A program made the position numbers and the translations under genes. From the IMG/VR virus record IMGVR_UViG_2526164613_000015: 18,446 bases of DNA; one strand, given 5' to 3'. Shown piece by piece: positions 3,632 through 9,612 of the stretch. This DNA is from a virus (taxonomy: Duplodnaviria > Heunggongvirae > Uroviricota > Caudoviricetes). The notes beneath the pieces were generated by a model. That model was not told the origin of the DNA. It made no database searches and saw only the letters and a list, made by a program, of their open reading frames with translations. How positions within the stretch are numbered: the stretch's first letter is position 1; each line of letters opens with the position of its first letter.

Positions 3632-3643
3632 CCAGACTAATGC

Positions 3644-3662
3644 AAAAACCCGCCGAAGCGGG
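3644..3662 (-). terminator. rho-independent terminator, probable 3' end of the hok transcript
   Basis: Minus strand CCCGC-TTCG-GCGGG followed by TTTTT; lies about 70 nt downstream of the hok stop; identical to hairpin at 1814..1827. Confidence 0.6.
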
Positions 3663-3732
3663 TTAAGTGCGGGTGCGTTGAGGATGCCTGGCACATCAGA
3701 GGTGGCGGGAGATTACTCCCCCGCCGGGTCTC

Positions 3733-3888
3733 TTACTCCTCAGGTTCGTAAGCTGTGAAGACAGCGACCTCCGTCTGGCCGGTTCGGATTCGTACCTCGC
3801 AGAGGTCTTTCCTCGTTACCAGTGCCGTCACTATGACGGTTAAACAGATGACGATCAGGGCGATTAACATCGCCTTTTGCTGCTTCAT
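3733..3888 (-). CDS. hokD: Hok/Gef family type I toxin (51 aa), HokD/RelF-like
   Basis: Manual translation of minus strand gives MKQQKAMLIALIVICLTVIVTALVTRKDLCEVRIRTGQTEVAVFTAYEPEE, matching HokD/RelF as recalled; single TM helix plus conserved C-terminal Cys region. Below the 60-aa ORF-track cutoff. Confidence 0.85.
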   Translation of the reverse strand: MKQQKAMLIALIVICLTVIVTALVTRKDLCEVRIRTGQTEVAVFTAYEPEE

Positions 3889-4099
3889 AGCCTGCTTCTC
3901 CTTGACCTTTTGGTCCGTAAGAGGCTAATCTCTATGTGTCGCATAGATATGGCCTCAGATTAATGTTAAGCGTCTTGCAGGACGCGTAATGTTAACTGGG
4001 GCTTTTCTCTATCTGCCTTTTGGTGTTCATGCCTGAGGCAGATAGCCTCAAGCACCCGCAGCAATTCTACTTAACTCCCGTCACCTCGCCAATATAAAA

Positions 4100-4259: not shown

Positions 4260-5291
4260 CTACCAATCAATAAAATCAGTGATGTTATCCAACCTAATTA
4301 CAGTAACTTCCCGTCTCAACTGGTTTTTCCAATATATCTCACGAGCGTTTTGTTCACCAGCACCGCTCCACTCAATTACTCTTAAAGGCTTAGAGGTTAG
4401 GTAAGGTCGAATAAGCAGGTTAAGGTGAATATCGAGACCAGAGTAACCAAACAATATTATTTCTTCTGATTCAAATAATGCAAACTGCAAATAATCCCAG
4501 TACGTAGAAAGAACATTAGATGCTGCTATAACTGACGGTTTTCTTTTTATATGAGTTAACACTATATGCTCACTAGGTTCATCTATGTCAAGAGTAAGTT
4601 GTGAGCGTGAAAGTTTTAAAACATTTTCATGCTGATTAATAAATAGTGGTGAACCATGCAAGTGCAAATAATAACCAAACCTACGATTGTATTTCCGTTC
4701 GAGCGCTGCAGAGGAAAATCCGTGGCTTAGCATCCCATCAACTAAAACCCCATCATACCCGTTGAATATATCATTATCTATGAATGAATTGTATAATAAT
4801 TTGTCATAGTTTAATGTCGCGATATGTGAGTGTGTGTTCTTTACAAACTCCACAAGCGCATTTTCGAATCTTTGTGGCAAACCTTTATCGTAATTATGCA
4901 ACCTGGTTGCAACTTTGTGAATATAAGTGGCGGTAATTTTGGGGAAGTTTAGTCCATCTTCAGTAAGCCAATGCACGTTCCCCTCTCCAATTTGAGCAAG
5001 AGCTTTACAATATGTGACAGCCTGGTGAAGGGTATCCAACTCATGTTCTCCTTCTGGTGGACCTTGCCGCTGAAGACAACGCTCGATAAGTTGCTTGTGG
5101 ATATCTTTTAAAAAATTGGGGCGATGCCAAATTTCTTCCAACGCTCTGTCTAAGGAGAAGTGAGCAGGATCTAAAGCCATACCGAGACCGTTGCCGAATA
5201 TTATTAATTTTCTTGCCATATAGGGGGACTCATATTGGAATAACGCTGGATAGCGTAGCGCGATACGCTTAAGTTTAGGATTAATAGACAT
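4260..5291 (-). CDS. SIR2-like (sirtuin-fold, SIR2_2/DUF4020-type) putative NADase, 343 aa, stand-alone
   Basis: Ordered motifs LIIFGNGLGMA (Gly-rich loop), ATLNYDKLL, YLHLHGS, ILFGYSGLD as in defence-associated SIR2 domains; gene and 370-bp upstream region are markedly AT-rich. Confidence 0.8.
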   Translation of the reverse strand: MSINPKLKRIALRYPALFQYESPYMARKLIIFGNGLGMALDPAHFSLDRALEEIWHRPNFLKDIHKQLIERCLQRQGPPEGEHELDTLHQAVTYCKALAQIGEGNVHWLTEDGLNFPKITATYIHKVATRLHNYDKGLPQRFENALVEFVKNTHSHIATLNYDKLLYNSFIDNDIFNGYDGVLVDGMLSHGFSSAALERKYNRRFGYYLHLHGSPLFINQHENVLKLSRSQLTLDIDEPSEHIVLTHIKRKPSVIAASNVLSTYWDYLQFALFESEEIILFGYSGLDIHLNLLIRPYLTSKPLRVIEWSGAGEQNAREIYWKNQLRREVTVIRLDNITDFIDW

Positions 5292-5659
5292 TCCGTTTGA
5301 TTACACTCGTTATTACAAACTTGCATGCAAAGAAGCCCAAGCTGTTAGGTAAACAGAGACCGCAGTGGCAAGATAATCTAGATATAGCCTATAAAATCCA
5401 ACAACAAATAGCGGCCTGTTTTCTATGACTTTTCTTTTCCCTAAATATCACTTATCTAATAAAATGCAATAATGTATTGCACAGTATTTAATGTGTATTA
5501 ATATAGATAAGTATTGGTCTTATTTGATAACAAATCCTGAGCCTCAAAATGTCTGCTTTTCACACAAAACCAACAAGTAGGCTATTTTTAGCTCTGTGCC
5601 GCGAAAATGTCAATTCATATCCGAACCAATACTCTTTAATTTCATTACCTGTGACAATT

Positions 5660-6067
5660 CTAGGCATATCCCTGATAGAACGCCAATACACGCTGCATAA
5701 CTTCGCTCTTCCGGCACTCGCGACAGATTATGTTCATACGCCTGTCGTAGCGGCGTATTTCTCCGTCGGGTAATGTCCAGATAAGGCCCGGATCAACCAC
5801 AACAGGTTTCTTCACCTTTGCCCTCGAGAGTTTTTTGCGGGCGTTTTGCCAGTCCTTACGAGCCTGTTCTGACGGGAACAACCCATAGCCAGAGTGATAT
5901 ACATCACCACTGGCAACCAGCTCTCTGGCAAGAATGCTCATCAGATATCTTGTCGCACCTGTTTTAGCTTCCAGTTGCCGTAGCGTCTCACGACCGCTCT
6001 GGCGCACGAGTTCCACCACCTGCCCTTTAATTTTTTCCCGCTCTTCTTGTGTAAAAACTTTTGCCAC
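5660..6067 (-). CDS. hypothetical prophage protein (135 aa), basic C-terminus, downstream of replication initiator
   Basis: GTG start with GGGGG Shine-Dalgarno-like element 4-5 nt upstream; 40 nt after the initiator gene stop; no family recognised. Confidence 0.5.
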   Translation of the reverse strand: MAKVFTQEEREKIKGQVVELVRQSGRETLRQLEAKTGATRYLMSILARELVASGDVYHSGYGLFPSEQARKDWQNARKKLSRAKVKKPVVVDPGLIWTLPDGEIRRYDRRMNIICRECRKSEVMQRVLAFYQGYA

Positions 6068-6107
6068 AAGTCCCCCTTAAAATTACCTCATGACCTGAAA
6101 TCAACAC

Positions 6108-7073
6108 TTATCCCCTGAAACCAGGCGGAATTTCTGTATCCGGTTCAGAAATATGATTCACACAACGCTGTATAGACGAACGCCCCAGACGGATGACCAG
6201 TTCATCCCATTTTTCACGAAGCTTTGACGGGCTCATGATGTTTTTTACCCAGAATGGATCTCGCTGTACCCGACCAAACATTTCGCAAATTTGTCTGTGG
6301 CTTCTGCCATCCAGCATCCGCATTGTGCGCACGTCATTGGCCCAGGCAGTCCAGTTAGGCTCTTTTGGTCGCATGATCTCGCCATCATCACTGGCTGCCT
6401 GTTCGTAGAGACCCACGATCCGCCCCCAGATCCACTGCGCACACGCCAAATCCTCCCTGCTACCCCACTGGCGTTTTTTCGCACTAAACACAACCGCGTC
6501 GGAGTTCCGGGTTAAAAAATCCTGTTCAGTCGTCTGCGGGTCCGGTTGCGAAGCTTCCGGACGAAAAGTGTTTTTATTCTCTGTAGTAATCTCTGTTGTA
6601 TTCTCTGTAAGATCATCAGGCCATTTTGACCCGATGACATTGGGTCGTTTTGAACCAATGGAGCGTTTCATTTTGACCTCTTCCATCGTGTCATTTTGAC
6701 CTGATGGAGCGGCGCATTTTGAACCGATGGATTCGCTCAATTTGCCACCATCTAAAAGCTCGCTCCCATAGTTGATCGTGTAGAAATTGGTCATATCGCG
6801 CTTTGATTTATTGAGCTTTTCACAACGCAAAAGCCCCAGCGTTTTCAGACTTGCAAACGCGCGCTTTAACGTTGACTCTGACCAGAATGGGAACTGTTCC
6901 AGCCATTGTTCCGTTGTGTTGTAAATCCAGCGAACACCATCACATTCCATGCCGGAATTGGTATCTCTCAACCAGTAATGCAACTGCTGCAACACAATGG
7001 CTTCATTTAAGCCAATCTTCATCGCAAGCTGTGTGTTTATAACCAGTGGGCGTTCAGCAAAAAGAAGGCTCAT
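6108..7073 (-). CDS. phage replication initiator (lambda O-like replisome organiser) with DnaT-like C-terminal domain
   Basis: N-terminal HTH-like region; central repeat-encoded linker (IGSK repeats); C-terminus ...SEPDTEIPPGFRG resembles the E. coli DnaT C-terminus as recalled. ATG at 7073 preferred over the TTG at 7127. Confidence 0.7.
   Translation of the reverse strand: MSLLFAERPLVINTQLAMKIGLNEAIVLQQLHYWLRDTNSGMECDGVRWIYNTTEQWLEQFPFWSESTLKRAFASLKTLGLLRCEKLNKSKRDMTNFYTINYGSELLDGGKLSESIGSKCAAPSGQNDTMEEVKMKRSIGSKRPNVIGSKWPDDLTENTTEITTENKNTFRPEASQPDPQTTEQDFLTRNSDAVVFSAKKRQWGSREDLACAQWIWGRIVGLYEQAASDDGEIMRPKEPNWTAWANDVRTMRMLDGRSHRQICEMFGRVQRDPFWVKNIMSPSKLREKWDELVIRLGRSSIQRCVNHISEPDTEIPPGFRG
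6581..6752. repeat. replication-origin-like iteron array inside the initiator gene
   Basis: Five to six direct repeats with core ATTTTGA(C/A)C at exact 23-bp spacing (TTTTGA at 6625, 6648, 6671, 6694, 6717, degenerate 6740), preceded by three 12-bp CTCTGT-containing repeats (6581-6615). Confidence 0.65.
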
Positions 7074-7575
7074 AATTCCATCCAGCTTTTTGTTGGTATT
7101 GCTGTCGATACGCAAGTTTGAAAGCAATTGCTTTTTCTATAAGTTCGTCAGTTTCACGATCCACTACGGCAGGATCAGCAAAAAGCAGTCCGGACTCCAC
7201 CACATCGCCATATTCTTTGTTTAACCCGGCGATCATGTACGTGATGCTTTTTCCGTCACTAATTTCACGATACAACCTGAAATCATTAATCCGGATAGCC
7301 TCCATAATTGCAGGCACTAGCGCCGTGAACTTTTCACGCTTATCCCTAGTGTCGATAGCCTTCCAGCGTTCGAATATCTTCACTCGATTAACGCCAAGCG
7401 CTCGCTGATCAACCGCGCCACCTTCATCTGTGACACGCTGAACCTCGATGTTCGGGCGCTCTTTCAAAGCCCAGAATGCTTCAGTGATTAATATCGTCGC
7501 CTGCTCCTGTGTCATTCCTGGTCGACATATCCAGGCATCCAGAGCCTCACGAGCCTGTTCAGGAGTGATTTTCAT
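7054..7575 (-). CDS. hypothetical early-region protein (173 aa) at the CII/YdaT position downstream of the cro-like gene
   Basis: ATG at 7575; overlaps the cro-like stop by 17 nt and the initiator start by about 20 nt, indicating an operon; family not securely recognised. Confidence 0.55.
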   Translation of the reverse strand: MKITPEQAREALDAWICRPGMTQEQATILITEAFWALKERPNIEVQRVTDEGGAVDQRALGVNRVKIFERWKAIDTRDKREKFTALVPAIMEAIRINDFRLYREISDGKSITYMIAGLNKEYGDVVESGLLFADPAVVDRETDELIEKAIAFKLAYRQQYQQKAGWNYEPSFC

Positions 7576-7786
7576 TGTTCAACCGCCCCGCCCGCTTCGT
7601 CTTACGATATTCGTCATAAACCTTGGGATCATACTGAAGCTCGCCGCCAGATGCCTCCTGTAGACGCATCGCGCGACCTTCAGGAACCAGCTCTTGCCAT
7701 TGAGAAACAGCAGATGGGTCAACGCCAGCAGCTTTCGCTACTTTAGCTTTCGTACCGTAAAAATTAATTACGTCTGATTTAAACAT
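7559..7786 (-). CDS. dicC: Cro-like regulator, DicC/YdaS-like (75 aa)
   Basis: ATG at 7786 with GGAGG 4 nt upstream; sequence ...VPEGRAMRLQEASGGELQYDPKVYDEYRKTKRAG resembles DicC as recalled; divergent from the repressor gene. Confidence 0.7.
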   Translation of the reverse strand: MFKSDVINFYGTKAKVAKAAGVDPSAVSQWQELVPEGRAMRLQEASGGELQYDPKVYDEYRKTKRAGRLNNENHS

Positions 7787-7798
7787 CGCACCTCCAAT

Positions 7799-7814
7799 AT
7801 TGAGTTTTCTCAAT
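7799..7814. promoter_or_regulatory. candidate operator in the dicA/dicC-like divergent promoter region
   Basis: Perfect palindrome ATTGAG-TTTT-CTCAAT, with CTCAAGGAATCTCAAG half-site repeats at 7822-7837, in the 77-bp intergenic region. Confidence 0.45.
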
Positions 7815-7863
7815 GCTAATCACTCAAGGAATCTCAAGCCAAGGGTTATTAAGATATCTAAAT

Positions 7864-8271
7864 ATGAACGAGAAAACTTTAGGTCAACGCATTAGAGAAA
7901 GACGTAAGCAGGTAGGCTTAAGTCAAAACGGTTTAAGCAAAGCTGCTGGCGTATCTGGCTCATCAATTTCATTATGGGAAAGTGACCATACAGCCCCGCG
8001 CGGGCAAAATTTGCATCGCCTCGCCGAGGTATTGCAATGTTCACCAACCTGGATACTGTTTGGCGACGAGGACAAAACACCAGCTCCCCCTGTTTCACTC
8101 GATAGTGCCTTAGACTTATCGGAAGATGAGTTAGAGATGTTGCGTTTGTATCGCGCACTTCCTAAATCAGAGCAACAAGCACAACTCAGCGAACTCCGCG
8201 CCCGCGTTGAGAATTTTAATCGCCTGTTCACCGAGCTATTAGAGGCTCGCAAACGCAACAAGCATCAATAA
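7864..8271 (+). CDS. dicA: CI-type prophage repressor, DicA-like XRE HTH protein (135 aa)
   Basis: HTH LGQRIRERRKQVGLSQNGLSKAAGVSGSSISLWES; motifs VLQCSPTWILFGDEDK and RARVENFNRLF resemble DicA as recalled; ATG at 7864 gives DicA-like length (ORF track starts at 7813). Confidence 0.8.
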   Translation: MNEKTLGQRIRERRKQVGLSQNGLSKAAGVSGSSISLWESDHTAPRGQNLHRLAEVLQCSPTWILFGDEDKTPAPPVSLDSALDLSEDELEMLRLYRALPKSEQQAQLSELRARVENFNRLFTELLEARKRNKHQ

Positions 8272-9559: not shown

Positions 9560-9612
9560 TTTCTGGTGACATTTGGCGGTATCAGTTTTACTCCGTGACT
9601 GCTCTGCCGCCC
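9560..9612 (+). ncRNA. dicF: DicF-like small RNA
   Basis: TTTCTGGTGACATTTGGCGGTATCAGTTTTACTCCGTGACTGCTCTGCCGCCC followed by TTTTT matches K-12 DicF as recalled with about one mismatch; lies immediately upstream of the dicB-like gene. Confidence 0.65.

Follow-up and report, generated by a model that had tools for sequence, protein, structure and literature searches.

Where would replication of a lambdoid prophage of the Qin/mEp460 type begin, and which DNA would its initiator recognize? This question is raised by a stretch of 18,446 nucleotides (virus record IMGVR_UViG_2526164613_000015; hereafter the window), which is part of a lambdoid prophage of Escherichia coli O55:H7 and matches strain DEC5B (NZ_CP038389 2106700-2125147) with 100% identity along its full length. 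On the minus strand of the window lies a gene for a replication initiator, labelled 'hypothetical protein' in RefSeq, whose middle part contains an array of 23-nt direct repeats (iterons) and, next to it, a block of three 12-bp repeats. Our analysis of these repeats, of the protein and of related genes indicates that positions 6575-6752 are most probably the replication origin of the prophage, embedded in the linker-coding part of the initiator gene. The coordinates of the features are collected in Table 1.

The iteron array comprises six 23-nt units that together span 6614-6752, with plus-strand starts spaced by 24, 23, 23, 23 and 23 nt. Tandem Repeats Finder reports a period of 23 with 3.7 copies at 6648-6731, and a repeat finder agrees on units of 23 nt. 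Read on the gene strand, the core of the unit is GGTCAAAATG; read on the plus strand, the corresponding string CATTTTGAMC has exact matches at 6622, 6669, 6692 and 6715 and a further match, with one mismatch, at 6646. Exact copies are found nowhere else in the window, and the five other one-mismatch matches in its 18 kb are scattered and at chance level. The consensus of the whole unit in gene orientation is CATCrGGTCAAAATGaCnCGATG. The identity of the array with itself at a lag of 23 is 0.56, which exceeds the maximum among 1803 other windows of equal length (0.517) and lies 10.4 standard deviations above shuffled sequence. Clear dyad arms (CATCrGGTC....GaCCyGATG) are present in the units at 6614, 6638 and 6684, the other three retaining the left arm and the core only, and this symmetry suggests that the initiator may bind as a dimer. 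The unit at 6730-6752 is degenerate, reading GGCAAATTG on the gene strand where orthologues have GGTCAAAGTG at the same position. In an information profile of 49 distinct units, A2, A10, A11 and G15 are invariant and C9, A12 and T22 nearly so.

In the direction of transcription, the iterons are followed immediately by an A/T-rich tract of low stability, which holds the three 12-bp repeats (listed by position at 6575-6610, TATTCTCTGTAG / TAATCTCTGTTG / TATTCTCTGTAA). Their identity at a lag of 12 is 0.79, without equal elsewhere in the window. The G+C fraction (GC) is 0.30-0.31 at 6563-6612 compared with 0.48 for the whole initiator gene, and the least stable 41-bp window within 5600-7700 starts at 6571 (ΔG −45.6 against a mean of −56.2, standard deviation 3.6). 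We regard this block as the candidate DNA-unwinding element. These observations refine a preliminary description of the repeats made from the DNA letters. Its count of five to six copies holds, there being six units of which four have exact cores, one has a single mismatch and one is degenerate. The 23-nt unit stands, while the 'exact' 23-bp periodicity that it claimed is broken by one spacing of 24. The three 12-bp repeats are real, starting at 6575 and not six nucleotides later at 6581, and they were said to precede the iterons; since the gene is on the minus strand, they follow them in gene orientation.

What kind of protein is encoded around these repeats? The open frame extends over 6108-7127 (minus strand), reaching up to a TTG at 7127. 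The product has a full-length match to PHROG 391 ('replication initiation O-like', E 5e-91) and shares 99.1% identity with the 'DNA replication protein O' that phage PhiR42_1 encodes. No Pfam family was found for it at E <= 0.01, and both NCBIfam and a PDB sequence search recognized its C-terminal tail only. An AlphaFold2 model of the N-terminal domain (N-domain) has a mean predicted local distance difference test score of 82.6 and is ordered to about residue 110, residues 111-115 being disordered. Every Foldseek match to this model is a winged-helix DNA binder; the matches are weak, with E from about 3e-3 to 2e-2 and template modelling scores of 0.5-0.6, the best being 4pql ('N-terminal domain of DNA binding protein'), and 5kbj ('Rep-DNA complex') is among them. 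The N-domain is presumed to bind the iterons. Phages of Staphylococcus, Bacillus and Pseudomonas have replication proteins whose N-termini are 45-56% identical to it; a wide search with the domain returned only proteins of <200 residues, many of them truncated or frameshifted, and served the structure alignment rather than gene context. Some database proteins with this N-domain, P0035 and P0047 among them, pass into an alternative frame inside the iteron array (an example is ...GQIALMF...LQRIQQR, in which the frame is that of a small open reading frame at 6512-6658), which suggests frameshifts or assembly errors inside the repeats of some genomes.

The C-terminal domain (C-domain) is homologous to that of lambda O, with 36% identity by tblastn (E 2e-16) and 34% over 148 residues by BLASTP (E 1e-26). 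The BLASTP alignment covers residues 147-294 only (135-270 of lambda O), and no N-domain of the lambda O type (Pfam Phage_rep_O) was found. The iterons encode residues 108-154 and the 12-bp repeats residues 155-167, both between the N- and C-domains. The repeats are thus in the linker of an O-like gene, as had been proposed.

This layout is collinear with that of the lambda origin. In both, the origin occupies the central part of the initiator gene and separates the segment for the DNA-binding N-domain from that for the C-domain, the two C-domains being homologous; direct repeats of about 20 bp are spaced 20-24 bp apart, with clear internal dyads in three of the six units here; and an A/T-rich tract with purines on the coding strand lies immediately promoter-distal of the iterons. 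The same repeat finder applied to the lambda O gene returned four 20-nt units at spacings of 20, 24 and 23, each with a dyad, followed by an A-rich tract and then an inverted repeat. From the BLASTP alignment it follows that the last iteron and the 12-bp repeats fall on the last iteron and the AT-rich tract of lambda. The differences are equally clear. There are six units here and four in lambda, and the iterons are unrelated (the core above compared with TCCCTCAAAACGAGGGA); the unstable tract is built of three 12-bp repeats; the N-domain gives no alignment with lambda O; at the C-terminus a DnaT-like tail takes the place of ...DWIYGVDL; and the gene that follows is DUF977 and not P (PF06992). 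The lambda-type arrangement that had been claimed therefore stands for the order of parts and the C-domain, but not for the N-domain or the loader gene.

Iteron plasmids (RK2, pSC101, P1, F) and staphylococcal RepA_N plasmids resemble the present system in having a winged-helix initiator, as judged from the weak structural matches, and repeats at about two helical turns. In iteron plasmids the unwinding element adjoins the iterons and is built of short repeats of 12-13 bp. Plasmid origins differ in that they normally lie outside the rep gene and usually have DnaA boxes; there is none by the repeats here, the sole match to TTATCCACA (at most one mismatch) in the whole window being at 5096. Among phages, the lambdoid origin has been described as lying midway through O and as made up of iterons and an AT-rich tract, the iterons numbering four in lambda and six in Stx phages; O is also reported to bind A/T-rich single-stranded DNA (PMC7466680). 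The Stx phages 933W and P27 share with our locus the order of six iterons and then an AT-rich tract within O; their outer iterons are weaker sites (PMC7466680), and the outermost unit here is likewise the most degenerate. The O protein and iterons of Stx phages are lambda-type and P-dependent, in contrast to the different N-domain, different iterons and missing loader gene seen here. Literature searches with GGTCAAAATG, CATTTTGACC and TCAAAATG returned irrelevant papers only, and we found no description of this origin in the literature on PhiR42_1 or on the iterons of replisome-organizer or winged-helix phage initiators. The locus is, by its sequence, a probable lambda-type origin embedded in an initiator gene, a known arrangement, of a specificity type that we did not find described.

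How far does this organization extend beyond the window? Trabulsiella and Edwardsiella genes have six units at the same spacing, and their 12-mers begin 24 bp past the last core. A recognizably similar layout, with much of the sequence retained, is found in genes from Hafnia, Pseudomonas, Staphylococcus and Bacillus whose N-domain is homologous (45-56% identical). Hafnia phage yong2 has iteron-like GGGACAAATTGTCC every 23 bp and 12-mer-like repeats of the ACAGAGATCAC type; Pseudomonas phage USP_25 has GGGCA....GCCCC every 23 bp and two copies of TACAGAGACTAC; Staphylococcus phage phiIPLA88 has GGGACAAAATGGCCCGA every 22 bp and CACAGAGACTAAC; and a Bacillus genome (L025) has TGTTCAAAATGA every 22 bp and three copies of CAGAGACTA. 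Genes that share the C-domain but have a different N-domain carry other repeats at the same place: CCGCAAAC every 23 bp in L013, ACCCGTCA/TTGACCCGTCAA at 15/30 bp in the SfII type (L020 and 34 IMG/VR loci), and GTGTCACTA in L029. A scan based on a C-domain alignment covered 80 IMG/VR loci, all of them close relatives with C-domains at least 89% identical; the iterons and 12-bp repeats were present in 40 of the 40 loci with this N-domain and in none of the 40 others. Repeats and N-domain are thus inherited together, which fits a specificity of the initiator for its iterons. The N-domain was also seen fused into proteins of about 790 residues in three metagenome-assembled genomes (L030, L031, L032). 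These have arrays of 21-bp repeats just past the part coding for the N-domain, L032 with CAGATTA 12-mers as well, so that the embedded-origin layout reaches larger fusion initiators.

Alignment of the initiator proteins reveals a mosaic joint: the N-domain, iterons, 12-mers and the sequence '...QPD' are common, after which one of two unrelated C-domains follows, either lambda-O-like or of the 'conserved phage C-terminal domain' type. The joint mirrors a classical rule for lambdoid phages, by which the origin is matched to the N-terminal half of O and the loader to its C-terminal half. An alternative is that the 12-mer block is a conserved recombination junction at which modules of N-domain plus iterons and of C-domain are swapped, and not an unwinding element. 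The break between C-domain types indeed lies just downstream of the block, and genes with an MSSKLHGL-type N-domain lack the block altogether. Moreover, a 40-bp block of ATTCTCTGTAG repeats (6575-6614) is 95-97% identical in L003 (1490-1537) and L004 (1501-1538), two E. coli initiator genes that otherwise have no DNA similarity to this one, that have other iterons (GGTTTCCC, TGGTTTTCC) and that are followed by a DnaC-like or DnaB-like gene. However, related ACAGAGACTAC repeats come after the iterons in Pseudomonas, Staphylococcus and Bacillus phage genes, where recent exchange with coliphages is implausible, and the block is the least stable DNA of the gene at the position of the AT-rich tract of lambda. 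The two roles are not mutually exclusive, and we consider a junction in place of an unwinding element to be unlikely, though it is the strongest of the alternatives. The spread of these ACAGAGA(C/T)TA 12-mers from coliphages to Staphylococcus and Bacillus phages raises the possibility that they are a sequence-specific single-strand site for this initiator family, beyond mere instability.

Is the putative origin functional in this prophage? The initiator open reading frame is intact. Escherichia phage PhiR42_1 has a 100% identical copy of the 206-bp origin segment, and the copies in mEp460_ev081 and HannyBb differ from it by one and two nucleotides. All three are deposited as complete phage genomes, and their genes follow the order of the window (repressor, Cro, cII-like, initiator, DUF977); the isolation of an mEp460-type temperate phage from E. 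coli strains is reported in the paper on an infant-gut phage collection (PMC6969025). Function in the present prophage is therefore plausible. The segment is present in 1978 of 5426 complete E. coli genomes, about a third, and in BL21(DE3) at 96.9% identity. K-12 Qin shares 3643-3902 and 7296-7687 with the window (98%) and nothing between, and so is without the initiator, the origin, DUF977 and the SIR2-like gene, which bears out the contrast with K-12 Qin drawn in the preliminary description.

An alternative hypothesis is that the array is kept mainly as a decoy or incompatibility element that titrates the initiator of superinfecting phages with this replication type, or for autoregulation of the initiator, and does not fire. 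Its wide occurrence in E. coli genomes would suit such a role, as would other defence or addiction genes nearby (SIR2-like, hok/sok), and a passage of PMC3349717 describes that a plasmid-borne lambda replication region blocks the plating of lambdoid phages with lambda-type replication. This hypothesis has difficulty with the deposited phage genomes, which have the identical or nearly identical array and no other candidate origin module. Moreover, iterons, an unstable repeat block and an intact initiator are kept together across phyla, which a decoy would not need, and a decoy effect is a by-product of an origin rather than an alternative to it. We consider this explanation distinctly improbable.

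A further alternative is that the repeats exist at the level of the protein only, as a disordered, low-complexity linker of IGSK and TTEN modules without DNA function. The segment does lie between two folded domains and the model is disordered from residue 111; IGSK is seen three times; and in all the enterobacterial genes examined the 12-mers read in frame as TTEN/TTEI repeats. However, a period of 23 is not divisible by 3, so that the core is translated in each of the three frames: the codon phases of successive cores are 1, 0, 2, 1 and 1, and the resulting peptides IGSK, SGQND and EVKMK (EEVKMK) are unrelated. The reading of the iterons as repeated IGSK segments in the preliminary description is consequently true of the units in one frame and not of the others. 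In the Bacillus genome the CAGAGACTA copies are 11 and 12 bp apart and are for this reason read in different frames.

The level at which constraint acts was examined in ten collinear orthologues (E. coli variants, E. albertii, Citrobacter, Enterobacter, Raoultella and Izhakiella) as mean pairwise identity at each codon position of a gap-free alignment. The N-domain exhibits the usual coding pattern, with identities of 0.87, 0.93 and 0.57 at positions 1, 2 and 3. This pattern vanishes in the origin region, where the values are 0.91, 0.95 and 0.87 in the iteron cores, 0.80, 0.81 and 0.77 in the spacers between cores, and 0.96, 0.82 and 0.97 in the 12-mers; third positions of the cores differ from those of the N-domain at p = 6e-6 (Mann-Whitney). 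The flat profile, and not the absolute level, is the informative feature because recent common ancestry alone would still leave third positions least conserved. In these alignments the constraint on the repeats acts on DNA. That the repeats might be repeats of the protein only, which the preliminary description had itself named as a finding that would count against an origin, disagrees both with the three frames and with third positions conserved in cores and 12-mers across genera, and we consider it very improbable. Least probable of all is that the repeats bind another protein as a packaging (pac/cos) or partition site or as operators of neighbouring regulators; although short direct repeat arrays are also found at pac, partition and some operator sites, these repeats sit within the initiator gene and at a great distance from any terminase gene, have no promoter-like or terminator-like site in or beside them and no DnaA box, and vary with the initiator N-domain and not with the flanking regulators; loci with these iterons in common have differing Cro, cII-like and repressor genes.

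Several points weigh against the assignment of an origin to 6575-6752. The orthologues are mosaic and hence not independent samples. The association of iterons with the N-domain is weak and partly trivial evidence, since the two lie within 300 bp and are inherited together. Judged against all windows of the 18 kb, the 12-mer block is only within the top 2.3% for low stability. Enterobacterial 12-mers are always in one frame (LTENTTEITTEN), so that frame alone cannot separate a role in the protein or as a recombination junction from a role of the DNA. Finally, no helicase loader is encoded, and of the 34 among 314 lambdoid phages that have an O homologue only, it has been stated that replication 'is not yet understood' (PMC12315714). 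Taken with these points, the evidence still makes an origin the most probable identity of the region.

How might such an origin work? In the model that we propose, the operon would be transcribed from the Cro-side promoter and the initiator made, whose N-terminal winged helix would bind the six iterons through the core GGTCAAAATG. The resulting nucleoprotein complex would strain the neighbouring block of 12-bp repeats (31% GC, the least stable in the gene) until the block opens. DnaB would then be brought in by the C-terminal domain and tail and loaded by host DnaC. The last step is based on the observation that the replication module contains no P, DnaC-like or DnaB-like gene (open reading frames of the window, Pfam and RefSeq annotation), so that host DnaC would have to load the helicase; window positions 6067-6108, after the initiator, have no remnant of a DnaC-like gene.

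The C-terminal tail of the initiator may bear on this step. Its last 17 residues, VNHISEPDTEIPPGFRG, are almost alike to those of E. coli DnaT, VNTVSEPDSQIPPGFRG, while the rest of DnaT is not present (NCBIfam PRK02854, 16.7 bits against a cut-off of 201). The tail matched PDB chains 2ru8, 6aep and 9zbt_D (phmmer) and positions 158-179 of the 179 of PRK02854. DnaT-like tails end the replication proteins of many (entero-)phages, some of which are annotated 'primosomal protein I' because of it. The tail occurs without a loader gene in the window, PhiR42_1, mEp460_ev081, HannyBb, Tritos, SPN1S and 46 IMG/VR loci, and with an IstB/DnaC-like ATPase directly downstream in POCJ13, Gifsy-1 and 34 IMG/VR loci, 10 of the latter sharing the exact N-domain type and iterons of the window. 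The same initiator and origin therefore exist in two layouts, initiator-DUF977 with a gap of 41 nt as here, or initiator-DnaC-like ATPase-DUF977 (L064, L076, L080, L100 and others). Initiators that precede lambda P or a DnaB-like helicase end otherwise, for example in ...WNSPEAWENTL or ...DWIYGVDL. In the collected sample the tail was never found with lambda P or a DnaB-like helicase; tblastn with lambda P gave no match in the 80 related IMG/VR loci, and P-like genes came only after initiators with a different tail.

The proposal that a DnaT-like tail means no loader gene held in 22 genes and was contradicted by the 34 of 80 loci with a DnaC-like gene, for which reason it was revised to a loader of the DnaC type or none. 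As a tentative and rather doubtful hypothesis, the DnaT-like peptide ...EPDTEIPPGFRG may replace a lambda-P-type loader and recruit a phage DnaC-like protein or, in 'O-only' phages, host DnaC·DnaB; jointly with this, and no more firmly, it may be copied from or common with the host restart protein DnaT. A role of DnaT in recruiting DnaB/DnaC has been suspected for a long time, and its gene is in one operon with dnaC (PMC13377028); no partner of the DnaT tail was found in the literature searched. The 'O-only' modules of the phage LLS type likewise have an O homologue without a helicase or loader gene, and the paper on them (PMC12315714) does not describe origins or iterons. Data on O157 Sakai prophages were considered as replication evidence for a near-identical element and set aside as inapplicable, since every lambdoid Sakai prophage with a stated loader type, 10 in number, has a P-, DnaC- or DnaB-type partner (PMC2669165, in which O/P of Sp3 is given as non-functional).

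Table 1 Features of the candidate origin, the initiator gene and its neighbours (positions in the window).
Feature	Position	Strand	Sequence or basis
Iteron 1 (gene order), degenerate	6730..6752	(-)	GATGGTGGCAAATTGAGCGAATC
Iteron 2	6707..6729	(-)	CATCGGTTCAAAATGCGCCGCTC
Iteron 3, internal dyad symmetry (inverted repeat I1)	6684..6706	(-)	CATCAGGTCAAAATGACACGATG
Iteron 4	6661..6683	(-)	GAAGAGGTCAAAATGAAACGCTC
Iteron 5, internal dyad symmetry (inverted repeat I7)	6638..6660	(-)	CATTGGTTCAAAACGACCCAATG
Iteron 6, closest to 12-mers, internal dyad symmetry (I1)	6614..6636	(-)	CATCGGGTCAAAATGGCCTGATG
Three 12-bp repeats, candidate DNA-unwinding element	6575..6610	(-)	TTACAGAGAATA CAACAGAGATTA CTACAGAGAATA (gene strand); GC 31%
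Replication initiator gene	6108..7073	(-)	321 residues from RefSeq ATG at 7073; stop codon 6108-6110
N-terminal winged-helix domain, residues 1-115	6729..7073	(-)	AlphaFold2 and Foldseek; presumed iteron-binding domain
C-terminal domain, residues ~199-294	6192..6479	(-)	Homologous to lambda O C-domain; 29 invariant columns in alignment A3
C-terminal tail	6111..6170	(-)	...RCVNHISEPDTEIPPGFRG; near-identical to E. coli DnaT C-terminus
Repressor-like gene	7813-8271	(+)	
Cro/DicC-like gene	7559-7813	(-)	Pfam P22_Cro; PHROG 409 and 163 for Cro-like and YdaT-like pair
YdaT/cII-like gene	7054-7575	(-)	Pfam YdaT_toxin; RefSeq
DUF977 gene, directly after initiator	5660..6067	(-)	Pfam PF06163, E 6e-29; PHROG 142 'Ren-like exclusion protein'

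The initiator gene is part of an early-right operon region in which Pfam, PHROG and RefSeq give the order repressor-like, Cro/DicC-like, YdaT/cII-like, initiator, DUF977. Transcription from the Cro-like and YdaT-like genes (7054..7813, minus strand) runs through the candidate origin. The DUF977 gene, also labelled 'LygF', is retained by the replication genes in nearly all related loci; it stands beside the initiator or after the DnaC-like gene in at least 70 of the 80 IMG/VR loci and is kept in both module layouts. Just downstream of the replication module is the SIR2-like gene missing from K-12 Qin (4260-5291, minus strand; Pfam SIR2_2, E 1e-5), which is possibly anti-phage defence cargo. Rfam matches identify a sok antitoxin RNA (107.5 bits, 3886-4057, minus strand) beside hokD and a DicF small RNA (77 bits, 9561-9612, plus strand), accessory genes that K-12 Qin also has. 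The last 364 bases of the window (18083-18446) are 99% identical to IS2 (IS2E of K-12 Qin). Past 14071 the window differs from other O55:H7 genomes, and no tRNA gene was found in it.

These results place the probable origin of a very common type of E. coli prophage to the base, for an initiator family that has no Pfam model and extends into Gram-positive phages. The iteron consensus and the candidate unwinding element are ready for binding and replication assays, and they may be of use in forecasting replication-type incompatibility and exclusion among lambdoid phages and in designing new compatible replicons. A module with a defined origin and a DnaT-like tail would moreover be a convenient system for the 'O-only' helicase-loading question (PMC12315714). 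If the proposed role of the tail is true, it would explain 'O-only' lambdoid replication and point to the partner of the DnaT tail. Of note for the family as a whole, the iteron core and the ACAGAGA 12-mers are deeply conserved in phages of both Gram-negative and Gram-positive hosts.

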